This document shows positions 1 to 11,180 of a stretch of DNA of 64,000 bases, one piece after another. The notes beneath the pieces were generated by a model. That model saw only the letters and a list, made by a program, of their open reading frames with translations, made no database searches and had not been told where the DNA came from. The stretch is taken from NCBI GenBank assembly GCA_050011835.1, contig JBEKII010000001.1, positions 22,473-86,472 of the forward strand, given 5' to 3'. This DNA is from Minisyncoccia bacterium. GTDB lineage: Bacteria; Patescibacteriota; Minisyncoccia; Phycocordibacterales; Phycocordibacteraceae. Made by a program: the position numbers and the translations under genes. Within the stretch, counting starts at the first letter, position 1, and each line of letters starts with the position of its first letter.

Positions 1-461
1 TTTTTCAATAATCTTTTAGCACTCTGCAATCTGCTACTCATCATTGAAAGCCATTTGCTATGGCGATAGCTGTCGTTGCTATCAACATAATTGTTGTTAT
101 ACTTCCAATCTTTTGCGCCAGTGTTATAGGGCGGGTCAATATAAATGACATCTATTTTGCCTTCGTGCGTGTAATTCAAAACCGAGAGAGCGTGATAGTT
201 GTCTCCCTCAATAAGTATATTGATTGGCTTTCCCGCGCTGGTTTTAACTTCTTTTGTTTTATCTTCAATAAGAACGGGCAAATTTTCTTTGCACCACCTA
301 ACTACTTTTTCGGGTTCTTTTTCACTATCCCAAACAAGCCCATATTTCTTGCGCTTGCGAAGACGCTTGATTTCTTCAACGAGCTGGTTTTTATCCCAGT
401 CGCTATATTTTTGATTGCCCGTTTGGACGGACGATTGTAATGGTAATGATTTTTCAGACAT
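1..461 (-). CDS. DNA methyltransferase, N-terminal part (N6-adenine/N4-cytosine, Type III Mod-like). The 3' end lies beyond the window's left edge.
   Basis: Manual minus-strand translation from the ATG at 461 gives MSEKSLPLQ...YGLVWDSEKEPE...NILIEGDNYHALSVL...IDVIYIDPPYNTG..HSKWLSMM. This contains the D/NPPY catalytic motif and the canonical N-terminal layout of PF01555-type Mod methylases. The ORF stays open to position 1. Confidence 0.7.
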   Translation of the reverse strand, partial: MSEKSLPLQSSVQTGNQKYSDWDKNQLVEEIKRLRKRKKYGLVWDSEKEPEKVVRWCKENLPVLIEDKTKEVKTSAGKPINILIEGDNYHALSVLNYTHEGKIDVIYIDPPYNTGAKDWKYNNNYVDSNDSYRHSKWLSMMSSRLQSAKRLLK

Positions 462-800
462 AGATGTACGCTATGTCTGGCAGGCACTCTTTTTTGTAAG
501 AAATGCAAAAAGGGGACAGCCAGATGGTACATCCACGTCCTCGTTAGCACAGGGGTTCCGATTAGTGGCACCTGACTGCCCCCTTTTCACCCGCTAATCG
601 GATAAAAATAAGGCGTGTCCTGCACTACCAAGGACTAGCGTGGATGTACAAGAGCTATGGTAGCAGACACTGGCGCGGGTTGGAAATCAGAGATTTTGCC
701 ACACGATTAGAACCAGTGTAAAAAGAGTATTTTTGGGTTGCAAATCGTGTCTTTTTATGGTAAATTATTAGCAACATTATATGACAATTACCCTACAACA

Positions 801-2963
801 ATGGACTTATTTCAGAGTTTTTCATCAAAAGAAAATCTAAAAAAGGCATTTGCATATCTCAAAGACGAGGCAGATGAAAGTTCGTTGTCTTTAGACCCGA
901 TATGGAGACCATCAATAAGTGCCGTGGCACAGCTTGGAGATGAGTTTTTTGAAGCACTCCAAGATTATCTCCGACAGGACAAATATCAGCCCGACAAAGC
1001 TGATTTTGTTTATGCCGATAAAGACAATATGGGAGTTCGTCCAATCTGTGTTTTTTCTGTAGTGGATAGGATAGTTTTTCAGGCACTTTTAAATCCGTGG
1101 ATTTTGGGAAACATAATAGATAAAAAATTATACCGTTCGTGCTTGGGCAATAGAGTGCTTGGAAAGGAGAAATATCTCAAGCCATATAAAAAACAATGGA
1201 TTGAATTTTGCGATAAACAAGTTGAAGCATTTAACAAAAAACTTATCTGGCGTGTTGAATTTGATATACGAACCTATTATGAGGACATCCATATTGATAC
1301 CTTACTTAAAGTTCTTAAAGAGGATTTTCAAATACACGATGAACGGCTACTTACAATACTTAAAAATCAGTTAGAAGCGTGGTCAGAAAAACCTACTGGA
1401 TGCGGTATTCCGCAGGGAGCAAATGCCTCTCACCTTTTAGCTAATGCCTATCTCTATAAACTAGATACTTTTTTTGATGACCTGAAAAGCGGTGGCGACT
1501 TTGAGTATTTTCGCTATGTTGATGACATAGTAGTAATGGCAAAAAGTGCCGATAAAATAAATCATAGTGTTGCAAAAGCAGGTTTGTCTTTTCGGGAATT
1601 CAATTTAACATTCAACGATAAGACAAAAATAGGGAAACTTAAAAACACAAAGAGCATTGAAGAATTGAAGTTTTATAGTCCTTATGGACAACTCAATGAA
1701 ACATCTCAACAAAGAGTAGAAAAAATAAGCAAAAGAATACCAATAATTTTAAGAAAAATCGCTAGAGGAAGCGATGTTAAAAAAACGGATATAAGCGGAC
1801 TTAAATACTATTTAAAAGCTGAAGCTGGTCTTGGTAATTCAGAGGTACTTGATAATTTAATTGCATTAATACCGAAGAAACCATCTTTAATTTTCTTGAT
1901 TTCTCGGTATTTAAGTTTCTATCTTTCTGACATCAACATTGTTTTTAACAAGGCAGACAAAAAACTTATACGCTCAAAATATGAGAAAATTTGGAAAACA
2001 TATAACGGCAATTCGCTTACAGGATGGACTAAATTCTGGCTCTTGAAAGTTCTCTCTACTCCTTCATTTGCGAAAGACCACGAGGGTTTTCAATCAGAAC
2101 TCAATAGAATAATCGCAGACCCCGATACCAATTTTTTAAGACCATTGGCATTTTTTTATAAAGCATATACGCGAGCGCAAATAGACCCCCTTATGCCTTT
2201 AGGTTTTACCTCGGATGATATTAAGAGACACATCAGAAATGCGAAGACGCAAACAGAAAAAGCAATTTATTATTACTTTTCTGTTTACTTAAGCGGCGTT
2301 GAGGAAAATGAAATAATAAAAGAATTAGTTTACGAAGCACTACAATCAAAATCACCAGAAATTCAAACAATGGGATTATTTTTGATTAAAAATCTATACC
2401 ATTTATTTGAACCAACTCCCGCCGTAGTAGATAACAGGGGTGTTGTAACAAAATGGAATGTAAATTCGGAACGAGAAATAACTGGAGAATTGAGTAGGAT
2501 TTATTTCAAGTTCCCACCGCCCGTAAAACCAAAGGCGGAACGAGAAACAGCAACCGAAGACGATTACCTCACTTTTGAGGGCAAAATTGCAAAGGATAAA
2601 TTTGCCTCGTTTATAGGTATGTCAAAACCTCGTAAAGAAGCAAAGTATTCAAAAATTATTGCAAATAAACTCAAATATTATCCAGAAAGTGGAGACACTG
2701 AATATAAAACTGCTGTATGGCAATTCAAGGGCAAAGCCCGCGCATTTTTAACGATACTTCACGGAAATAAGAATATGAATTTTAATATTGAGGATATTAA
2801 AAAGTATTGCAATCCACTTGTTATCATACAAAGACATAAATTTAGAGACGAAAAAGACACAAATGACACCTTACGAGAAATTCGTTTTAGATTAAAAGCG
2901 AGTAAAGGCGAATTATTCCCGATTTTTAAGCAAGAAAGGGGCTGGATATGGCTTGAAAAGTAG
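801..2963 (+). CDS. Reverse transcriptase with a long (~440 aa) alpha-helical C-terminal extension. It resembles Abi/UG-class defense RTs (AbiA/AbiK-like architecture).
   Basis: RT motifs: NLKKAFAYL (motif 0-like), RPICVFSVVDRIVFQALL (motifs 1/2), GIPQGANASHLLANAYL (QGxxxS motif), YFRYVDDIVVMA (YVDD catalytic motif). The track ORF starts at 738; the ATG at 801 fits better behind a TTGCAA-N17-TAAATT promoter (~726-754). An intrinsic terminator follows at 3028-3057. Confidence 0.75.
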   Translation: MDLFQSFSSKENLKKAFAYLKDEADESSLSLDPIWRPSISAVAQLGDEFFEALQDYLRQDKYQPDKADFVYADKDNMGVRPICVFSVVDRIVFQALLNPWILGNIIDKKLYRSCLGNRVLGKEKYLKPYKKQWIEFCDKQVEAFNKKLIWRVEFDIRTYYEDIHIDTLLKVLKEDFQIHDERLLTILKNQLEAWSEKPTGCGIPQGANASHLLANAYLYKLDTFFDDLKSGGDFEYFRYVDDIVVMAKSADKINHSVAKAGLSFREFNLTFNDKTKIGKLKNTKSIEELKFYSPYGQLNETSQQRVEKISKRIPIILRKIARGSDVKKTDISGLKYYLKAEAGLGNSEVLDNLIALIPKKPSLIFLISRYLSFYLSDINIVFNKADKKLIRSKYEKIWKTYNGNSLTGWTKFWLLKVLSTPSFAKDHEGFQSELNRIIADPDTNFLRPLAFFYKAYTRAQIDPLMPLGFTSDDIKRHIRNAKTQTEKAIYYYFSVYLSGVEENEIIKELVYEALQSKSPEIQTMGLFLIKNLYHLFEPTPAVVDNRGVVTKWNVNSEREITGELSRIYFKFPPPVKPKAERETATEDDYLTFEGKIAKDKFASFIGMSKPRKEAKYSKIIANKLKYYPESGDTEYKTAVWQFKGKARAFLTILHGNKNMNFNIEDIKKYCNPLVIIQRHKFRDEKDTNDTLREIRFRLKASKGELFPIFKQERGWIWLEK

Positions 2964-3027
2964 TAAATAAAAAATTCACTTTTCTCACCTGCGTATCCGA
3001 CACAGGGCGGTAAAAGATAAGGTCAAA

Positions 3028-3057
3028 GCAGATTGCGCTTTGGCTTTTTTTGTTTGC
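3028..3057 (+). terminator. Rho-independent terminator after the RT gene
   Basis: Hairpin caaagc-agattgc-gctttg followed by gcttttttt. Confidence 0.5.
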
Positions 3058-3101
3058 CAGAGCCGCAAGGTCGTTTTAACCAATTAACTAACAAAATTAT
3101 A

Positions 3102-3401
3102 ATGACAAGAAAATTACAAAAAAGTAGTCAGCCAGAGGAATACACCTATATCCCTCTGGACGATACAGCGAATTATTTTTACTCGCACGACATTGGATTG
3201 TGCAGTTATTTGTTAGCCAAAAACTTTGAGTTGGTCGGCTTGGATAAAGCAATCAGAAACAAGGTGCTTTTCATTCTGAAAAGAGACGAAGGAATAGAAG
3301 CGGAAGTGAAGAAATACTGGGACTTCAAATCTTCAGTAGATGCTCAAACATACTTCAACCAGATTAAGCGGTGTAAAAACCAAATCTTCAGTTCGCAATA
3401 A
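3102..3401 (+). CDS. Small phage/mobile-element-associated protein (DUF5659-like pattern)
   Basis: YFYSHDIGLCSYLLAKNFELVGLDKAIRNKVLFILKRDEGIEAEVKKYW...QIKRCKNQIF. This matches the pattern [YF]xSxDLxLAsyLxxKGxELVxIxK..KxVFxF typical of small phage proteins. The family assignment is from memory. Confidence 0.4.
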   Translation: MTRKLQKSSQPEEYTYIPLDDTANYFYSHDIGLCSYLLAKNFELVGLDKAIRNKVLFILKRDEGIEAEVKKYWDFKSSVDAQTYFNQIKRCKNQIFSSQ

Positions 3402-3405
3402 ATCT

Positions 3406-3603
3406 ATGTTGTCGGATGAGCAGATAACAAAATATCAGACGCTTCACAAAAACCGCTTCGGCAATGAAATCAGCCGAGAGGAAGCGTATGAAAAAGGCGC
3501 GAAACTCATCCGACTTGTTGAGTTGATTTACAAACCGATGACCGAAAACGAGTACCAAAAATTACAGGAACGCCGCCGAGAAACTGGCGACCTGAAAACC
3601 TAA
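3406..3603 (+). CDS. Hypothetical small protein (66 aa)
   Basis: ORF starting MLSDEQITKYQTLHKNRFGNEISREEAYEKGAKLIRL, packed tightly behind the previous gene. No recognisable domain. Confidence 0.35.
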   Translation: MLSDEQITKYQTLHKNRFGNEISREEAYEKGAKLIRLVELIYKPMTENEYQKLQERRRETGDLKT

Positions 3604-3627
3604 CAAAACCTAACATTACAAAACTAT

Positions 3628-3894
3628 ATGAAATCTCTTGAAAGACGATTTAACAACATAGCCGAGAAAAATCCCAATCGGAGTTCTTATATCTGTTTTG
3701 CCGAAGCTGTGAAAGGGCAAGGTTTTAGCGAGCAAATAATTCACCGATGGTTTAACAAATTAGTTGATAAAGATGATTATGCAAAGAAAGAGAAAAAAGC
3801 AGTTTTGAAGTTTCTCGTTGGTCTTTCAAACCCCGTGAGGACAACAGGAAATGAGAGTAAATCAGCCCCACGAAGCAGACAAAATGCCAAATGA
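3628..3894 (+). CDS. Hypothetical small protein (88 aa)
   Basis: ORF in the same orientation within the element. No recognisable motif. Confidence 0.35.
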   Translation: MKSLERRFNNIAEKNPNRSSYICFAEAVKGQGFSEQIIHRWFNKLVDKDDYAKKEKKAVLKFLVGLSNPVRTTGNESKSAPRSRQNAK

Positions 3895-3948
3895 TACATA
3901 ACAGTCCTATGTAACAAAAATCTATAAAATTAACCAACATTATCCAAT

Positions 3949-6189
3949 ATGGAAACATTACAAACTATTAACATTAAAGAATATCTGACCAGAAAAGGCG
4001 TTACCTTTCGTGAGAGCGGTAAAGAAATCATCACCCAATGTCTCTTTAACGGCTGTGATAAAGACAGCAGGGGCGCGGAAGCCCATCTCTATTTTGACGC
4101 CGAGACGGGGCAATTTGAGTGCAAAAAATGTGGCGAGAAAGGCAATCTCGTAACCCTCGCCAAGCATTTTGGAGATGGCATACAAGAGATTGCCCTTAAC
4201 CCCGTAATACCCACGAGAAATCCACGAAAATCCACGAAATTTGACGCGGGGCTAGTAGAAACCTGCCATCAGGCACTTCCAGCCAATATCCGCCAATATC
4301 TCAACGCTAGAGGCATTACAGACGCTGTTATAGACGCCCACAAGCTCGGCTGGGGCAAGTTCTATGGCAAATGGTGGATTACCATACCAATACAAGATAT
4401 TTATAGGGCTTTTCAGTTTTTCAAGTTGAGGAGAGACCCCAATGCGGGAGATGAAAAAACTACTTATCCCAGAGGCATTGAAGCCCAGATTTACGGCTGG
4501 GAAACCTTAACAAATCTTAACAATTCACTCCTCATCTGCGAGGGCGAGCTGGACAGATTGGCTTTGCTTTCAAAAAACATACCCGCAATTACTTCAACGC
4601 ACGGGGCGATGACATTCAAGCAGGAGTGGTGCGGAAAGGTAGGAAAAGGTAGGAAAATCTATATCTGTTTTGACAATGATGAAGCGGGCAGGAAAGGAGC
4701 AGAGCGGGCGGCAAAAATGTTGGAAAATGTTGGAAATGAGACATACATAATCACGCTACCGCAGGAAGTTGGCGAAGGTGGCGACATAACCGATTACCTC
4801 GTGAAGCTCAACGGCAACCCCGATGACTTGTTTGGTAAATATGCAAAAGAGTATCCAGAAAAAATGGATACCTCGCAATTCCAGCCACTCTCTCCGCAGG
4901 ATTTGATTGAGATACTTGGATTGACGATAAAACAGGACGAGGAGAATAAAATCGCAACCTTCCTATGTGAGCTATCGGCATATACCGAAAACGCACAATT
5001 CAACATCAGCTATAACGCCCCATCATCCACTGGCAAAAGTTACATCCCTTTGGAGATTTCAAATCTATTTCCAAGTGAAGATGTAATGAAACTTGGTAAC
5101 TGCTCTCCCACGGCTTTTTTTCACGAGCAGGGCGAGTACAACAAAGACAAAAACATCATAACCGTAGACCTGTCCAGAAAAATCATTATCTTTTTAGACC
5201 AACCACACACCGCTCTCTTGGAGCGATTGCGGTCATTGTTGTCGCACGATGAAAAAGAAATGCACTCCAAAATTACCGACAAAAATCAGAAGGGCGGAAA
5301 CCGAACTAAAACGGTAATTATAAAAGGTTTCCCCTCGGTAATTTTCTGCACGGCAGGGCTGACGATTAACGAGCAGGAAGCCACCCGATTTTTACTGTTA
5401 AGCCCAGAAGTCAATCGGGAGAAAATCAGGCAAGGGATTTTGGAGAGTATTAAAAAAGAAGCAGACGCCGAGAACTATAGAAGTTGGCTTGATGAGAACC
5501 CAGAGCGAAATCTACTCAAGGAGAGAATACGAGCAATAAAACTAGAGGGCATCCGAGAAATTAAAATTGCGAACCATCAAATAGTCATTGATAAATTCTT
5601 TAGTGAAAACAAAGTACCTAAACCAAGAAATCAGCGAGACATTAAACGCCTTGCCTCGCTCATCAAATCTTTTGCCCTCGTTAATCTCTGGTGGCGAGAG
5701 AAAAGCGGCACAACAATTACCGCCAACGAAGATGATATTGAACAGGCATTTAAGATTTGGAATGCTATCTCTGTAAGCCAAGAACATAACCTGCCGCCCT
5801 ATATCTACAATCTCTACCAAGAAGTCATCTTAACGGCGTGGAATGACAAGAACGACAACAGGAATGAGAGCATTGTAGCGGTAACGGGATTGCTCGGCGT
5901 ATCACGCCAAGAATTGCTCCAGAAGCATTTTGAGGTCTATGGGCGAATGTTGGACACCAACCAGCTACGACAACAAATCCTGCCAATGCTTGAGACGGCG
6001 GGGTTAATTGAGCAGGAGGCAGACCCTAACGATAAACGAAAAATGCTGATTTTCCCTGCCGCACTTCCCACTAAACCTTCTGACCAGAGGAATAGCGAGA
6101 ACGAGGGTGTGGTGAGTATCAGTGAAGAAAACAATAGTGAAATGAGCAGTGGGGTAACTCAAGATTTAGAAAGTTTCCTGACGCCATAA
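3949..6189 (+). CDS. Primase-helicase-type replication initiator: DnaG-like CHC2 zinc finger + TOPRIM primase domain fused to a C-terminal P-loop NTPase (P4 alpha / PICI Pri-Rep-like).
   Basis: Zinc finger CLFNGC...FECKKCGEKG. TOPRIM signatures LLICEGELDRLAL and YICFDNDEAGRKGAERAA. Walker A YNAPSSTGKS. Walker B-like IIIFLDQ. Long helical C-terminus. Confidence 0.7.
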   Translation: METLQTINIKEYLTRKGVTFRESGKEIITQCLFNGCDKDSRGAEAHLYFDAETGQFECKKCGEKGNLVTLAKHFGDGIQEIALNPVIPTRNPRKSTKFDAGLVETCHQALPANIRQYLNARGITDAVIDAHKLGWGKFYGKWWITIPIQDIYRAFQFFKLRRDPNAGDEKTTYPRGIEAQIYGWETLTNLNNSLLICEGELDRLALLSKNIPAITSTHGAMTFKQEWCGKVGKGRKIYICFDNDEAGRKGAERAAKMLENVGNETYIITLPQEVGEGGDITDYLVKLNGNPDDLFGKYAKEYPEKMDTSQFQPLSPQDLIEILGLTIKQDEENKIATFLCELSAYTENAQFNISYNAPSSTGKSYIPLEISNLFPSEDVMKLGNCSPTAFFHEQGEYNKDKNIITVDLSRKIIIFLDQPHTALLERLRSLLSHDEKEMHSKITDKNQKGGNRTKTVIIKGFPSVIFCTAGLTINEQEATRFLLLSPEVNREKIRQGILESIKKEADAENYRSWLDENPERNLLKERIRAIKLEGIREIKIANHQIVIDKFFSENKVPKPRNQRDIKRLASLIKSFALVNLWWREKSGTTITANEDDIEQAFKIWNAISVSQEHNLPPYIYNLYQEVILTAWNDKNDNRNESIVAVTGLLGVSRQELLQKHFEVYGRMLDTNQLRQQILPMLETAGLIEQEADPNDKRKMLIFPAALPTKPSDQRNSENEGVVSISEENNSEMSSGVTQDLESFLTP

Positions 6190-6240
6190 AAAGGGTCATC
6201 GCTAACTGATAAACAGTATAAAAACAGTAATAACAAAACT

Positions 6241-6786
6241 ATGAACGAAATATCAAAAAAACAATTAGAGGCAAATCGTGAGAACGCAAAGCTCGGCGGC
6301 GTAAAGACCGATGAGGGTAAAGCTGTAAGTAAATATAATGCTCTCAAACACGGAATTTTGAGCAAAGAGGTGTTACTTGAAGGAGAGGATGAAAAAACAC
6401 TTATTGAAATCGGGAAAAAACTACGAGCAGAATTAGAGCCGCAAACAGAGCTTGAATTAGTGTTGGTTGATAGGATAACTGCCAATGTTTGGAGATTAAG
6501 ACGGGTAATGCAGATAGAACGAGAAATGATTGAAGATGACCGCAAAGACAGTTTCAGTAAAGGTGGATTGAAGACACTTGGAGAGGCGTTTAGTTATGAC
6601 TCTGCCAATTACGATACTTACAGTAAACTTATTCGTTACGAAGCAAGCATTGAACGCGGTATCTATAAAGCATTGCACGAACTACAACGACTGCAGGCGG
6701 TGAGGAATGGTGAAAATGTGCCAGTGCCAGTAGTTGTAGATATGGATATATCTGGTGAGAAAATAAATGGGTTCGTTTCGCAATAA
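6241..6786 (+). CDS. Hypothetical protein of the mobile element (181 aa)
   Basis: ORF with segment ELELVLVDRITANVWRLRR. Function unknown. Confidence 0.4.
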   Translation: MNEISKKQLEANRENAKLGGVKTDEGKAVSKYNALKHGILSKEVLLEGEDEKTLIEIGKKLRAELEPQTELELVLVDRITANVWRLRRVMQIEREMIEDDRKDSFSKGGLKTLGEAFSYDSANYDTYSKLIRYEASIERGIYKALHELQRLQAVRNGENVPVPVVVDMDISGEKINGFVSQ

Positions 6787-6841
6787 TAACTTGATTAAAC
6801 TGGTTAATCTCAAATAATTTCGGCAATAGAAAAAATAAAAT

Positions 6842-7456
6842 ATGCGCGGCGGATGGAACTCTACAGGTAAAACAGAAGCGGACAGCGTAAAGAAAATATC
6901 TGTACGCTTTCTCAATGAGCGCGGCTTTTTCTCTGGATGGCAATCTGGAACGATGACTTGGACGAGCGGACGGTCGGGAACGAAAAGTAGTGTCAGTATT
7001 GAGGTCTCAACGATGAACGAGGAGAAGTATCTTCGTATCTACTATACGCAAACAAACCGTGATACGGACGAGGAAAAGGACTTTGACTACAAAATCCCTC
7101 TGCTCTCCACTCCGTGTCGCTATGGCGGTAAAAGGTATTGGTTTCAGTGTCCGTGGTACAAAAACGGGCAATACTGCGGACGCAGAGTAGGTACTTTATA
7201 CAAAAATGGCGATTACTTCGCGTGCCGCCACTGCTACAATCTCACCTATGCAAGCCGCAATGCGAGTGCTCGGTACAAAGGGTTCGTAAGCTGTCCAGAC
7301 CTTGATGAACAGGAAGCGAAGGTGAAGCGGATGTATTACGCTGGAAAGCCAACTAGAAAATACCGAAAACTACTGAAAATGGAGAGGCGTTTTGAAATGG
7401 GCGTTATCCGAGCCGCAGGTGGATTAGGCATACTTGGCAAGAAATATGGTGTATAA
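6842..7456 (+). CDS. Hypothetical zinc-ribbon protein (204 aa)
   Basis: Cys cluster CRYGGKRYWFQCPWYKNGQYCGRRVG...FACRHCYNLTY. Function unknown. Confidence 0.4.
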   Translation: MRGGWNSTGKTEADSVKKISVRFLNERGFFSGWQSGTMTWTSGRSGTKSSVSIEVSTMNEEKYLRIYYTQTNRDTDEEKDFDYKIPLLSTPCRYGGKRYWFQCPWYKNGQYCGRRVGTLYKNGDYFACRHCYNLTYASRNASARYKGFVSCPDLDEQEAKVKRMYYAGKPTRKYRKLLKMERRFEMGVIRAAGGLGILGKKYGV

Positions 7457-7612
7457 TGAACTTGTTGAACCGATGAAAGCAAATATGCGCAAGGTATTTT
7501 TATTGCAAAAAGGTAAGATAGTAGCCCGAGAGGGGCGGTCTGCCGCTATCTTGCCAATCCTTGCGATTGCTCGTAGTCGGTTCAACACAGACCGTCCCTT
7601 TCGGGTTTTTGT

Positions 7613-9223
7613 ATGAATAAAGATACCAATAAAATCAAATACTTTATTTACGCCCGAAAGTCATCGGAGAGCGAAGACCGACAGGTGCAATCTATTGATG
7701 ACCAAATAAATCGGCTCAAAAAGTTTGCCAGCGATTTTAATCTGGATATTAAAAAGACCTATACCGAGGCGAAATCGGCAAAGAAACCGAATAATCGCCC
7801 TATTTTTGATGAGATGATGGAGCGGATTGAAAAGGGCGAAGCGGACGGAATTTTATGTTGGCAGATAAATCGTCTCTCCCGTAATCCAATTGATAGCGGC
7901 AAATTAAGTTGGTTCCTGCAACGAGGAATACTTAAATCAATCCAGACCATAGACCGTCAATATCTACCAGAAGACAATGTATTGATTTTCAGTGTTGAAA
8001 GCGGTGTAGCCAATCAATACATTTTGGATTTAAGCAAGAATACCAAACGGGGTATGCTCTCCAAGCTTGAAAAGGGTTGGCAAACGGGAATAGCACCGCT
8101 TGGCTATCTCAACGATAAAGAAAATAAAATTATCATCAATGACCCAGAACGATTTAACCTTATCCGCAAAATGTGGGATTTAATGCTTACAGGCAGTTAC
8201 ACACCACCAAAGATTTTGGATATTGCGAATAAGGAGTGGGGTTTTCGGACAAGGAAGTTTAAACGAATGGGTGGCAATGAATTATCCCGAAGCGGTATCT
8301 ATAAGATTTTTACGAGTTTGTTTTACGCGGGGATAATTGAAAATGCAGGGGTGCAATACGAAGGACAGCACGAAAAAATGATTACGCTTGAAGAATATGA
8401 CCGAGTGCAAATGCTTATTGGCAGAAAAGGTAAACCAAGACCAAAACAACACAAGTTTGCTTTCACTGGGTCTATACGGTGTGGTGTATGTGGCTGTCTT
8501 TATACGGCTGAAACAAAGAAAAGAATACTAAAATCAGGAGAAATACACGAGCATACTTATTATCATTGCACGAGGAAAACAACAAAGATTAAGTGCAATC
8601 AACGGAAAAATATCCCAGAAGGCGATTTGGAAATAGCCATTGAGAAGGAGATAGAAAAATACACCATCCTGCCAGAGTTCTTGCAGTGGGCATTAGAGGG
8701 ATTAAATAAAAAGAACGATACCGAAATTGAGGACAGAACGAAGGTTTACGAAATGCGACACAAAAATTTGGTAGAAACCCAAAAGGAGTTGGATGAGCTT
8801 ACTAAAATGAGATACCGCCAGTTGATTGATGACGAAACCTTTATCAAAGAGAAGAACACGCTCCAGAGCAAAATCACCCAATTCAAAGAAAATCTGCGAG
8901 AAACAGAAACGCGAGCCGAGAAATGGCTTGAACTTACTGAAAAGACATTTGCATTTGCCGCTTATGCACGCAAAGCATTTACTACTGCAAAAGGAAAAGC
9001 AGGGTTAGAACTGAAGAAAGAAATCTTATTAGCACTCGGTAAAACGCCGATAATTAAAGACCAGAAGCTGATTATTGAACCGAATGAGTGGTTTGCAGAG
9101 ATACAAAAAAGCTATCCTGCGTTGGAGAGAGAATACTTAAGGTTAGAACCGAAAAATCCCCTTGTAAATCAAGGAGATTTTCCGATTTCTGACCCTATAT
9201 TCCGAACCGTGCTCCGCGGGTAG
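7613..9223 (+). CDS. Large serine recombinase (integrase) of the element
   Basis: Resolvase-type catalytic N-terminus YFIYARKSSESEDRQVQSIDDQ. Recombinase domain and C-terminal zinc ribbon CGVCGCLYTAE...HCTRK. The last codons overlap the 3' end of tRNA-Asn. Confidence 0.8.
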   Translation: MNKDTNKIKYFIYARKSSESEDRQVQSIDDQINRLKKFASDFNLDIKKTYTEAKSAKKPNNRPIFDEMMERIEKGEADGILCWQINRLSRNPIDSGKLSWFLQRGILKSIQTIDRQYLPEDNVLIFSVESGVANQYILDLSKNTKRGMLSKLEKGWQTGIAPLGYLNDKENKIIINDPERFNLIRKMWDLMLTGSYTPPKILDIANKEWGFRTRKFKRMGGNELSRSGIYKIFTSLFYAGIIENAGVQYEGQHEKMITLEEYDRVQMLIGRKGKPRPKQHKFAFTGSIRCGVCGCLYTAETKKRILKSGEIHEHTYYHCTRKTTKIKCNQRKNIPEGDLEIAIEKEIEKYTILPEFLQWALEGLNKKNDTEIEDRTKVYEMRHKNLVETQKELDELTKMRYRQLIDDETFIKEKNTLQSKITQFKENLRETETRAEKWLELTEKTFAFAAYARKAFTTAKGKAGLELKKEILLALGKTPIIKDQKLIIEPNEWFAEIQKSYPALEREYLRLEPKNPLVNQGDFPISDPIFRTVLRG

Positions 9224-9283
9224 GATTCGAACCTACAACCAACTCCTTAACAGGGAGCTGCTCTACCATTGAGCTACCGCGGA
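9212..9283 (-). tRNA. tRNA-Asn (anticodon GTT)
   Basis: Reverse complement TCCGCGGTAGCTCAATGGTAGAGCAGCTCCCTGTTAAGGAGTTGGTTGTAGGTTCGAATCCTACCCGCGGAG folds as a cloverleaf. Acceptor TCCGCGG/CCGCGGA, anticodon loop CTGTTAA, T-loop TTCGAAT. No encoded CCA. Confidence 0.85.
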
Positions 9284-9356
9284 ATGCATATTCGTTGAAC
9301 GTTTGTATTCTAGCCCAAACATCGCGCGCCGCAAAGCGGCGCGCTATACTATAAAC

Positions 9357-9845
9357 ATGGTTTTAACGCTTACTAGTTCTGCATTTGAAAATAACGGGGT
9401 CATACCCGCGAAATATACGTGCGATGGAAGTCGTGAACTCTCGCCTCCGCTTATGATTAGTGATGCGCCGGAAGGAACAAAATCATTCGTGCTTATCGTG
9501 GATGACCCCGACATCCCAGAAGTGGTAAAAAAATCTCACGGCCTTGAGGCCTTTGACCACTGGGTGCTTTATAATATCCCCGTGCCAGTGGGTGGAGAGG
9601 TGGAAGTTCCAGCGGGCGCTACCCCCGGCTCTACAGGATTAAACAGCGCCGGCGGTATGAAATACATCAGTCCCTGTCCACCGTCGCAATATGAGCCGAA
9701 AGAGCATCGCTATGTTTTTACTTTGTATGCGCTGAATGAAATGCTTCATTTTCCAAATGCACCGACTGCACGACAAGTGCGCGATGCGTTGACGCCGTTT
9801 TTGCTCGCAAAAACAAAACTTATTGGCCGTTATTCCAGACCATGA
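9357..9845 (+). CDS. YbhB/YbcL-family PEBP (Raf-kinase-inhibitor-like) protein
   Basis: LTSSAFENNGVIPAKYTCDG...SPPL...PEGTKSFVLIVDDPDIP...HWVLYNIP is the PEBP signature. The start is taken at the ATG at 9357. Confidence 0.65.
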   Translation: MVLTLTSSAFENNGVIPAKYTCDGSRELSPPLMISDAPEGTKSFVLIVDDPDIPEVVKKSHGLEAFDHWVLYNIPVPVGGEVEVPAGATPGSTGLNSAGGMKYISPCPPSQYEPKEHRYVFTLYALNEMLHFPNAPTARQVRDALTPFLLAKTKLIGRYSRP

Positions 9846-10204
9846 ATATCACCATCAAGGCAACGAAGTATACATTTACGCCCGAAGACGAAGCATTTAT
9901 AGAAAAGAAGCTCGCGGCTCCTCTGCGTCTTCTTGGAGATGCGAGCGACACGGCGTTACTTGAGATAGAAATAGGGAAAGCGCCGCCAGAAGGACGTTCG
10001 GCAGAACCGTACCGCCTTGTTGCGAATCTTATAGTAGGCGGCAAGGTTTTCCACGCTGAAGCGGTGAAGCCGTCGCCCGAGAGCGCTGCGGACAGGGTTC
10101 GTAGCGAGCTTGAGGCGGAGATACGGCGTTCGCGCGGGCGCGCGCGACGGCTCATCAAGCGCGGTGGCGCGACGGTCAAACGAATGCTGCGCTTCGGCCG
10201 TTAA
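9842..10204 (+). CDS. Ribosome hibernation/RaiA-HPF-like protein (tentative)
   Basis: N-terminus MNITIKATKYTFTPEDEAFIEKKL resembles the HPF/YfiA start (MxIxIxGRHxExTxALRxYxEEKL). Overlaps the previous gene by 4 bp. Confidence 0.4.
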   Translation: MNITIKATKYTFTPEDEAFIEKKLAAPLRLLGDASDTALLEIEIGKAPPEGRSAEPYRLVANLIVGGKVFHAEAVKPSPESAADRVRSELEAEIRRSRGRARRLIKRGGATVKRMLRFGR

Positions 10205-10207
10205 AGT

Positions 10208-10283
10208 TCGCCGGCAAACAAAAAAAGAAAACGCTCGGGCCGCTAGGCCAATACTACATACTTTTTCTTGTTTGCCGGCTCTC
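10208..10283. terminator. Long inverted repeat between convergent genes (probable bidirectional terminator)
   Basis: gccggcaaacaa...ttgtttgccggc forms a 12-bp perfect stem. Its loop holds the inner palindrome gggccgctaggcc, and A/T runs flank both sides. Confidence 0.4.
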
Positions 10284-11180
10284 TGTATATATTATTTCGT
10301 GTTTCCCCTCGGGAATAACGCGCTCAATGATGAATTTTTCGTTTTTGAATGAAGCTGCGGTTATTTTAATTCTTTTTCCATTTTCTATAAAATATGTGCC
10401 AATAGTGTCGGCGTACGTGCGATATTTATTCCAATTTTCTTGCGCCGTCGCAGTGAGCGACAAAAGGCCGTCTTCTTTTTTAATTTTGTGCGCATACGAA
10501 ACTTGCGAGGAATCCTGCGCGATTGGTGCGATGTCGCCGCACAGATATGCGGGAAGGGTATCAACGAGCAGTTGTGCGCCTTGAGCAATGAGTCGCGGAC
10601 GCACCTCGCGCGCAGTCTCGTTTGGAGCGATGTCCATTTCTTTTTGCGCAAGAATCGCACCCGCATCAATTTCGTGCACCATCTCCTGGATGGTTACTCC
10701 GGTTGTTGAATCACCCGCGAGAAGCGCGGATTCAAGCGGCGTCGCGCCGCGATACTTGGGCAAGAGCGAATAATGAACATTAATGACGCCTTTAGGGAAA
10801 GCGGCGATAAGTTCGTTGGAAAATATTTTGCCGAATGCGACCACAATTGCGTAATCGCATTTATAGGCGCGAATCGCGGCAATTGTCTCGTCATCAAGAG
10901 TTCTCGGTGTGAGAACAGGCATGTCGTGTTCGAGCGCAAAAGTTTTTGTTTCAGAAGGCGCGAGCGCGAGCCCGCGGCCCTTAGGAGCATCCGGCGAAGT
11001 CACGACGACGGCGGGCGCGAAGCCTCGTTCAATAAGCACTGCAAGCGTGTCGCTCGCCACGGCGGGAGTGCCGAAAAATGCGAAGCGAAGCGAAGTCCCT
11101 TCACTCGCTTTCGAGTGTTGCCGGACGAATTTAAGAAGCGGGATTTTGGTCATGGGTGACGTGAACGAGATGTTCAGCAT
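10254..11180 (-). CDS. fmt: Methionyl-tRNA formyltransferase
   Basis: LRFAFFGTP...VVTSPDAPKGRG...INVHYSLLPKYRGATP. Classic def-fmt pair. The true start may be the internal ATG at 11153. Confidence 0.85.
   Translation of the reverse strand: MLNISFTSPMTKIPLLKFVRQHSKASEGTSLRFAFFGTPAVASDTLAVLIERGFAPAVVVTSPDAPKGRGLALAPSETKTFALEHDMPVLTPRTLDDETIAAIRAYKCDYAIVVAFGKIFSNELIAAFPKGVINVHYSLLPKYRGATPLESALLAGDSTTGVTIQEMVHEIDAGAILAQKEMDIAPNETAREVRPRLIAQGAQLLVDTLPAYLCGDIAPIAQDSSQVSYAHKIKKEDGLLSLTATAQENWNKYRTYADTIGTYFIENGKRIKITAASFKNEKFIIERVIPEGKHEIIYTESRQTRKSM

Follow-up and report, generated by a model that had tools for sequence, protein, structure and literature searches.

A UG19-related reverse transcriptase with a predicted winged-helix tail in an exchangeable cassette slot of a Patescibacteria mobile element

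We analysed a stretch of 64,000 nucleotides from a Minisyncoccia bacterium (contig JBEKII010000001.1, positions 22,473 to 86,472), here referred to as the window, in which the gene at positions 801 to 2963 encodes a stand-alone reverse transcriptase (RT). Judged from its profile matches and predicted structure, the RT represents a UG19-related subgroup of the class 1 UG/Abi polymerases, with a C-terminal domain of the OmpR/PhoB/ToxR winged-helix type. This is not a new kind of system; what is new is the subgroup with the OmpR-type tail, which is nearly confined to bacteria of the Candidate Phyla Radiation (CPR), or Patescibacteria. The less expected result is that the gene occupies a defined cassette slot in tRNA-integrating CPR elements, and that the occupants of this slot exchange their C-terminal modules. 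The gene and the predicted parts of its product are located as follows.

801 to 2963, plus strand: RT gene, a single-gene cassette encoding 720 amino acids (aa), the coordinates including the stop codon
801 to 1670, plus strand: RT fingers and palm, aa 1 to 290, with an RT0-like NLxxA motif, D155 of motif A, QGANAS, YVDD and K274
1698 to 2408, plus strand: predicted alpha-helical repeat domain (alphaRep, HEAT-like), aa 300 to 536, in place of a thumb
2409 to 2666, plus strand: linker, aa 537 to 622, with a small beta-hairpin and then the conserved stretch GELSRIYFKLP...LTxEGKIAxDxFxxFxG
2667 to 2960, plus strand: OmpR/PhoB/ToxR-type winged helix, aa 623 to 720, a predicted DNA-binding module

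Placement of the polymerase among the class 1 UG/Abi enzymes

The best PADLOC model was RT_UG19, which matched aa 4 to 399 of the RT to positions 3 to 386 of the 562 in the profile (E-value 6e-51, 172 bits), followed by the models for UG21, UG23 and UG9, the generic RT model (fifth, 106 bits) and UG32. UG20 was also matched, and no model for a retron or a diversity-generating retroelement (DGR) was found among the 25 matches listed. Class 1, which is defined by the alphaRep domain, includes UG9, UG19, UG20, UG21, UG23 and UG32 (Mestre et al. 2022, PMC9226505). For calibration, a bona fide UG19 protein (P0043), about 25% identical to the window RT, scored 471 bits over profile positions 2 to 560 of 562, and end-to-end matches were also obtained for two RTs from Streptomyces and Motilibacter (607 to 647 bits to UG23) and for P0044 (404 bits to UG17). 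Because the window RT reached 172 bits over two-thirds of the UG19 profile, compared with 471 bits end to end for P0043, it appears to form a separate, UG19-related class 1 subgroup or variant that falls outside the scope of the UG19 model.

The last third of the UG19 profile, which is the region of an additional, distantly HEPN-like domain, was left without a match in the window RT. UG19 proteins are fused to or encoded next to an additional domain with distant similarity to HEPN, and were predicted to be defensive from inspection of their loci (Mestre et al. 2022, PMC9226505). The window RT resembles them in having the RT and alphaRep plan with an extra C-terminal domain, but the distant HEPN-like domain, whether fused or encoded by an adjacent cluster 1465 gene, was absent; the tail is a predicted winged helix instead, and the RT is not accompanied by a partner gene in its cassette. 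UG32 is likewise a class 1 RT fused to a domain of a DNA-binding type, a helix-turn-helix (HTH) (PMC9226505). However, the UG32 model scored lower than those for UG19, UG21 and UG23, with the match (E 7e-30, profile positions 79 to 377 of 521) covering the RT and the first repeats only, and nothing identifies its HTH as an OmpR-type winged helix.

An exhaustive search of 1.84 billion representatives recovered 65 clusters at 50% identity with E-values of at most 1e-30, and an indexed search recovered 44 proteins, of which the named ones were nearly all from Patescibacteria. A protein identical to the window RT is annotated from a metagenome-assembled genome of Minisyncoccia, and this exact sequence (P0001) is absent from the contig index. 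No relative of the RT was found in IMG/VR, and a viral origin was rejected on these grounds. Only one small UG group, UG38, had previously been noted in CPR.

The open reading frame (ORF) list gives an enclosing ORF at positions 738 to 2963 on the plus strand, which yields a protein of 720 aa when read from the ATG at position 801. This start agrees with the N-termini of the homologues (MDLF or MNLF...) and with a conserved leader located directly upstream. An earlier annotation of the window, based on the DNA alone and here called the sequence-only reading, had counted 741 residues; the ORF on which it relied is present, but the count starts from a TTG codon at position 738. The RT motifs that it had listed were recovered, with QGANAS at aa 205 to 210 (nucleotides (nt) 1413-1430) and YVDD at aa 239 to 242 (nt 1515-1526), inside a Pfam RVT_1 match at aa 77 to 277 (E 4.8e-13). 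The residues Y239, D241, D242, D155 and K274, as well as other motif residues, were 90% to 100% conserved in an alignment of 77 full-length relatives, which indicates that the polymerase site is under selection. The RT core is intact and the enzyme apparently active.

The AlphaFold2 model, which was built from 25 homologues with a mean predicted local distance difference test (pLDDT) score of 80 and a predicted template modelling (pTM) score of 0.73, consisted of three modules, namely the RT fingers and palm, the helical repeats and the C-terminal domain. The long non-RT extension that had been noticed earlier was confirmed, and in its approximately 430 aa the helical repeats are followed by the linker and then by some 100 aa that form the C-terminal domain. 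In structure comparisons, the RT and the helical repeats gave the longest alignments with class 1 UG/Abi polymerases, with 377 to 423 aligned residues: DRT6 (score 17.8, 419 aligned residues), AbiA (16.0, 423), DRT4 (15.8, 393), Abi-P2 (14.8, 377) and AbiK (14.5, 423). Foldseek concurred, with the top query-normalised TM-score, 0.45, being to DRT6. The helices at aa 300 to 536 on their own resembled HEAT/ARM proteins. No thumb or X domain was seen in the model, where the alphaRep domain, the defining feature of class 1, was located instead, as in the untemplated class 1 enzymes.

The best matches to class 1 profile models, the similarity of whole-chain folds and the lack of intron, retron or DGR features bear out the UG/Abi-type RT with an alpha-repeat extension that had been proposed, and a new variant, also considered at that time, agrees with the partial match to the UG19 profile and the different tail. 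The distance to the characterised enzymes is large, since the window RT is only 13% to 15% identical to DRT6 (UG12), DRT4 (UG15), AbiK, Abi-P2 and AbiA. None of these five carries a C-terminal winged helix (AbiA has a HEPN domain), and all five originate in Proteobacteria or Firmicutes, or in phages and plasmids of these, whereas the window RT is from a CPR bacterium.

The C-terminal domain at aa 623 to 717 follows a poorly ordered linker and was modelled as beta-beta-beta-alpha-alpha-alpha-beta-beta. In the structure comparison it matched solely DNA-binding domains of the OmpR/PhoB family, and the 50 top Foldseek matches to a separate model of aa 528 to 720 were all from this family. The predicted N-terminal beta-sheet, three helices and C-terminal beta-hairpin wing are also found in the OmpR, PhoB, ToxR and CadC domains, and the pattern ...DTLREIRFRLK...FPIFKQERGWIWLEK in the RT tail echoes their recognition helix and wing. 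The tail differs from them in being joined to a polymerase, or in other proteins to N-terminal regions without Pfam domains, rather than to a receiver domain, and in giving no significant Pfam match in the window protein: Trans_reg_C did not match aa 601 to 720 at E <= 1, and the relative P0032 reached an E-value of 0.059 and 13.9 bits, where the cut-off is 26.2. The modelling of the C-terminal half, a check that the sequence-only reading had proposed, contradicts its suggestion that the domain may be undescribed. According to the model, the tail has a known fold, and only its sequence family, which lies outside Pfam, is undescribed. The tail is neither a new domain nor a nuclease or HEPN domain, the latter in agreement with the earlier annotation. 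The winged helix most likely binds double-stranded DNA, as its predicted fold suggests; no candidate operator for it was identified within the window.

The cassette slot, its occupants and the surrounding element

The features of the element in and around the slot, as located in the window, are listed here.

1 to 461, minus strand: 5' part of a gene for a Mod-like N6-adenine methyltransferase (MTase) with IYIDPPYNTG (DPPY motif), which runs off the window; restriction-modification (R-M) cargo beside the slot
738 to 766, plus strand: candidate promoter TTGCAA-N17-TAAATT with a TG-extended -10 region
752 to 3015, plus strand: exchangeable cassette
774 to 791, plus strand: leader ACATTATATGACAATTAC, found upstream of the slot gene whether this encodes an RT, a TPR protein or another product
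3019 to 3054, plus strand: intrinsic terminator, hairpin and T-run, part of the conserved backbone flank
3102 to 3401, plus strand: DUF5659 gene, the first backbone gene, present with or without an RT in the slot
3949 to 6189, plus strand: backbone gene for a zinc-finger/Toprim primase, whose C-terminal half resembles a P-loop helicase
7613 to 9223, plus strand: large serine recombinase (Resolvase, Recombinase and Zn_ribbon_recom domains), the element integrase
9211 to 9283, minus strand: tRNA-Asn(GTT), whose 3' end overlaps the end of the recombinase ORF by 13 nt (9211-9223)

The limits of the cassette are defined on both sides by comparison with other loci. The closest RT loci, with 86% and 78% nucleotide identity, aligned with the window only from positions 752 to 762 onward, and the genes upstream of them were different, an HTH_3 controller-like ORF in one and a MerR/HTH_17 gene in others; the upstream regions differed even between RTs that were 76% to 86% identical. 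On the other side, loci with a TPR-repeat gene in the slot shared the window sequence from about position 3015, which includes the terminator and the next promoter. The RT-carrying unit therefore consists of the ORF and at most about 50 nt of non-coding sequence on each side.

All 13 RT-anchored CPR loci had the same gene order downstream of the RT and a variable upstream side, which suggested that the RT might belong to the core of the element. The 49 metagenomic loci anchored on the primase, each reaching at least 4.5 kb upstream of it, led us to reject this idea, since only 3 of them carried the RT. The element can do without the RT, whose fixed slot may be filled by any of several alternative cassettes. 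The other occupants included TPR-repeat proteins, pairs of proteins without assigned function, an AAA_13/PrrC-like protein (PDC-S06) and others. The TPR cluster has 19 members, of which 2 representatives were scanned and both matched TPR models; Pfam and PADLOC searches of most of the slot proteins, and of non-RT proteins with the winged helix of the window RT, gave nothing beyond TPR and the one AAA_13/PrrC-like protein. A shared origin of the RT repeat domain and the TPR slot proteins was also considered, and no homology was found.

Several family members deviate from this arrangement. The RT was found without the backbone in L132 (positions 8001-10640), where it is located between trpA and ychF and encodes a protein of 879 aa with an extra Cys-rich tail (P0030), and in L131, which is decayed. 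P0013, which is present on 23 contigs, is located in L129 (8001-14860) in an element whose primase has been lost. A 398-aa protein from a metagenome-assembled genome of Nitrospinota, annotated as a partial N-6 DNA methylase (P0042), combines an RVT_1 with an HsdM domain, and the first 20% of the RT matches it with 71% identity; this protein is probably an artefact of gene calling, in which a divergently arranged RT and MTase on a short contig were joined into one chimera.

The RT family is conserved to about aa 610 and then splits into several unrelated C-terminal types, which start after the conserved stretch of the linker. Non-RT proteins in the slot end in the same module types, with up to 86% identity, and at least 4 types are shared. 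When slot proteins from the primase-anchored loci were grouped with the RTs by module, one type comprised 9 RTs and 11 slot proteins, a second comprised 6 of each, and the winged-helix type of the window comprised 12 RTs and 3 slot proteins. Consistently, 43 of the 150 best representatives in the exhaustive search matched only aa ~610 to 720, with 41% to 75% identity, and this match was always located at the C-terminus, in proteins of 128 to 548 aa that were otherwise unrelated. Ten of these winged-helix-ended non-RT proteins were scanned, and no significant Pfam domain was found; the one non-RT module protein whose context was examined was located in the same slot, in a minimal element, beside an EcoRI system. 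RT and non-RT proteins of the slot exchange their C-terminal modules with one another, the winged helix of the window RT included.

The consensus of the winged-helix module is KLNFYPExGDAEY...FKGKARAFLT...NKNMNF...DIK..CNP...KDINDTLREIR.RLK...GE.FPIFKQE.GWIWLEK. It ends at least 43 proteins, which were noted among P0080-P0182 and in L133 (525-1313) and L134 (2221-3009); several of the non-RT proteins that carry it share an N-terminal motif (..WWVL..I). A common origin of the module types was examined with hhalign, which gave no similarity between the window type and any other type. Neither was the module type coupled to the downstream DUF5659 gene: DUF5659 proteins that were 86% to 96% identical adjoined different module types, and the median DUF5659 identity was 48% within and 46% between module types.

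Slot genes of any type are preceded by a near-invariant leader, ACATTAAATGACAATTAC(CC), which ends 10 to 15 nt before the ATG. It was seen in L005, L049, L050, L052, L058, L062 and L126-L128 as well as in the window, where the copy at positions 774 to 791 has one mismatch. In most loci the leader is in turn preceded by an inverted repeat, GCAGAT-N7-9-ATCTGC, with an operator-like appearance, which was absent from the window and from L125. The sigma70-like promoter that the sequence-only reading had assigned to the RT gene is present as a sequence, and its TG-extended -10 region (TGGTAAATT) recurs in L125 and L007. However, it matches the consensus at 8 of 12 positions, which is below the scan threshold; it was not reported by the promoter scan, in which the overall number of sites was not above that in shuffled sequences. 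The promoter at positions 738 to 766 is thus plausible, although taken alone it does not exceed chance expectation.

The terminator scan identified 9 sites compared with 2.6 expected, one of which is the hairpin at positions 3019 to 3047 that, with its T-run, had been described as the terminator of the RT gene. The structure is present, but we assign it to the backbone of the element and not to the RT, because the homology to the TPR-gene loci extends from about position 3015. A palindromic pair was observed 0 to 130 nt past the RT stop codon in L004, L005, L006, L012, L071, L083 and L099, of which CTGAAAAATCAG is the terminator hairpin after the RT and the complement, CTGATTTTTCAGCATA(T/A)AG, is located about 60 to 80 nt further, before DUF5659. 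The pair was absent from the window and from L001.

The mobile nature of the surrounding region, as previously proposed, is supported by a shift in GC content, which is 37% to 45% over approximately the first 10 kb compared with 48% to 55% in most of the rest of the window, by the serine recombinase and by the abutment to tRNA-Asn. The far end of the element was visible in 2 loci, the window and L001, and adjoins a tRNA 3' end in both, that of a tRNA-His located 40 nt after the recombinase in the case of L001; the left end in this genome lies beyond the window. The tRNA-Asn gene is likely the integration site and the right end of the element, with the attachment site probably located inside the tRNA 3' end.

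In the RT loci, the RT is followed by DUF5659, small ORFs, the Toprim primase-helicase, 2 conserved small genes and the large serine recombinase. The order in the element family as a whole (positions ~752-9283 in the window; L001-L013 and L045-L134) is the slot gene, DUF5659, small ORFs, the primase-helicase, a protein of about 180 aa, a Cys-rich protein of about 200 aa and the serine recombinase, where the primase position may also hold an HTH_36 protein or nothing. At least 399 relatives of the primase are present in metagenomes of the Joint Genome Institute. No description of this CPR element family was found in the searchable literature; a study of genomic islands in Patescibacteria refers to R-M islands, and RTs, primases and recombinases are absent from its account.

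The primase weakly matched the PADLOC models RTasDnaG-like (2e-11) and RT_UG29 (3e-8), in the Toprim region only. These matches reflect shared primase ancestry and are no evidence of joint action with the RT, because most of the elements carry the primase without an RT.

The upstream neighbours of the RT were often R-M systems, several of them of type III or type II, and in the window the module directly adjacent to the cassette is type III-like. As noted before, the window contains a Mod-like MTase gene with the IYIDPPYNTG motif on the minus strand (positions 461 to 1), and its full-length relatives score as type III Mod proteins encoded beside a Res gene. A Mod-like MTase was also found in L001, type III Mod and Res in L002, HpaII in L004, and an EcoRI methylase together with GmrSD/HNH upstream of the RT in L013.

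Conserved backbones with interchangeable accessory genes at one position are also found in the defence hotspots of P2 prophages and P4-like satellites, and in tycheposons. The elements described here are similar in that they combine an integrase and a primase-helicase backbone, with RTs and R-M genes swapped between conserved flanks. They differ from these in their use of a serine recombinase as the integrase, in their CPR hosts, and, unusually, in the interchangeable C-terminal modules and the leader that the slot proteins have in common.

Possible functions of the polymerase

On balance we lean, with limited confidence, towards the RT being a stand-alone class 1 UG/Abi polymerase in the slot of a CPR element that would confer phage defence by DNA synthesis, with the winged helix acting as a DNA tether or an autoregulator. 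The anti-phage role is suggested by the family and the context, and would consist in the defence of the host or of the element, as for AbiK, Abi-P2, AbiA, DRT4 and DRT6. In those five enzymes, DNA synthesis is primed on a tyrosine of the enzyme itself and proceeds without a template to give single-stranded DNA, and the product becomes toxic, or interferes with replication, once a phage factor stabilises it. Class 1 enzymes are protein-primed and untemplated, with a priming tyrosine that is differently positioned in each known enzyme, and what triggers DRT4 and DRT6 is the shielding of their product from host exonucleases by a DNA-binding protein of the phage (PMC12783706). By analogy with these enzymes, we infer untemplated, protein-primed synthesis for the window RT. 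The priming residue could be one of the family-specific conserved tyrosines, namely Y129, which lies among 10 residues inserted into the palm compared with group II RTs, Y295, which lies between the RT and the alphaRep domain in their linker, and Y336. The winged helix may tether the enzyme to particular DNA, either its own locus or incoming DNA, or it may autoregulate the gene. The context also speaks for a defensive role, with an optional cassette, R-M neighbours and the PrrC-like PDC-S06 as an alternative occupant of the slot.

Several observations weigh against this interpretation. The family profile at aa 2 to 281 aligns end to end with the RT domains of group II introns, including the RT0 motif (E 1e-28), and with DRT4/UG15 in the palm only (E 4e-10). 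Because the fingers and palm are thus closer in sequence to templated group II RTs, untemplated synthesis is an extrapolation from fold and class. The shared modules and leader, and the retention of the slot gene in minimal elements, would fit a regulator of the element equally well. The commonest occupants of the slot, the TPR proteins and the pairs without assigned function, had no PADLOC match, for which reason the slot is not demonstrably a defence hotspot. To our knowledge, no role has been established for a DNA-binding tail in defence by class 1 RTs.

The similarity to group II RTs raises the question of whether the RT copies a template. That it belongs to a group II intron, a retron or a DGR, or is a decayed remnant of one, is highly improbable. 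Beyond a generic similarity of the RT core and the label "retron-type reverse transcriptase" that one source gives to one homologue, nothing in the locus points in this direction: no group II intron, retron or other family was found by Rfam at the gathering score or at E <= 5, Pfam identified only RVT_1 in the RT and no maturase, HNH or endonuclease domain, the repeats at positions 1 to 10000 were short and at chance level with no pair of template and variable repeats, and no Avd-like gene was present among the neighbours. With 720 aa, including the repeat domain, the protein is also larger than retron RTs of about 300 to 400 aa, no msr/msd or intron RNA domains were found, the upstream sequence is not conserved in close relatives, and the intact ORF is conserved in ~65 clusters. 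These three identities, already excluded in the sequence-only reading, are refuted as far as sequence analysis reaches. A templated RT that copies a trans-encoded non-coding RNA (ncRNA), its own mRNA or a phage RNA, like class 2 DRTs, retrons and free-standing group II-like RTs, is a somewhat less remote prospect, to which we nevertheless give little weight. It would account for the end-to-end alignment of the N-terminal 281 aa with group II RT domains, and for a structured region of about 290 nt at positions 462 to 751, which separates the RT cassette from the start of the divergent MTase gene. This region contains long-range stems, for example between GTACATCCACG at positions ~527-537 and CGTGGATGTAC at ~640-650, and folds better than shuffled sequences on both strands; for positions 462 to 800, z values of -2.6 and -3.6 were obtained. 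However, it had no Rfam match and no counterpart in any of 134 loci, including those with RTs that are 76% to 86% identical, and it was dropped as a candidate for an RT-associated ncRNA; the 86% identical L125 has the HTH_3 controller-like ORF in its place. The short non-coding flanks of the cassette leave no room for an ncRNA of the retron or DRT2/9 type, unlike the class 2 systems DRT2, DRT9 and DRT10, in which a conserved structured ncRNA is located next to the RT, and this, together with the variable upstream side, fits the untemplated chemistry of class 1; an ncRNA within the ORF itself or one supplied in trans would escape this argument. The alphaRep domain in place of a thumb or X domain, and the 106 bits to the generic RT model compared with 195 to 300 bits for group II-like RTs in the same scan, also argue against a templated enzyme.

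The main rival explanation, which we consider possible but improbable, is that the slot gene encodes a DNA-binding regulator or sensor of the element, located upstream of the replication and integration operon and provided with a swappable N-terminal head (TPR, RT-alphaRep or other), in which case the RT version would couple DNA synthesis to the control of the element instead of killing phages. The master repressors of phage-inducible islands and the TPR-HTH quorum regulators of phages and integrative and conjugative elements would be the analogues. A plus-strand slot gene is present in nearly every related element, even in the minimal L129, which has no primase, and L134, of about 4.5 kb. The common leader, the operator-like inverted repeat in most loci, the sharing of at least 4 module types by RT and non-RT slot proteins, the winged-helix fold of the window module, typical of transcription factors, and the 43 of 150 top library matches that are non-RT proteins ending in this module would all be expected of such a regulator. 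Yet the module type varies independently of the adjacent DUF5659 gene, the RT is also found outside the element in the trpA-ychF locus, no operator was identified in the window, where, as in L125, the inverted repeat is absent, and the RT repeats are not homologous to the TPR slot proteins. The strict conservation of the RT active site would moreover be needless in a mere sensor. At about the same low level of probability we place a combinatorial slot family, in which swappable N-terminal heads (RT-alphaRep, TPR arrays and others) are joined by a common linker to swappable modules that bind nucleic acids. For the RT, this would mean that the winged helix directs templated or untemplated DNA synthesis to a specific site, either in phage DNA or in the control region of the element, so that the RT would be a sequence-targeted effector or a sensor-regulator. 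We know of no DRT or Abi system for which such a sequence-targeted mode has been described.

CPR bacteria have tiny genomes and are thought to depend mostly on restriction-modification for their defence. An RT family restricted almost wholly to mobile elements of CPR bacteria, with ~65 clusters at 50% identity, would, if defensive, bring RT-based immunity to a large uncultured branch of the bacteria. With its OmpR-type domain fused to a class 1 polymerase, the RT also raises the question of DNA targeting or autoregulation in these polymerases, and the slot, with its conserved flanks, is a place in which to seek new accessory and defence genes in CPR genomes.

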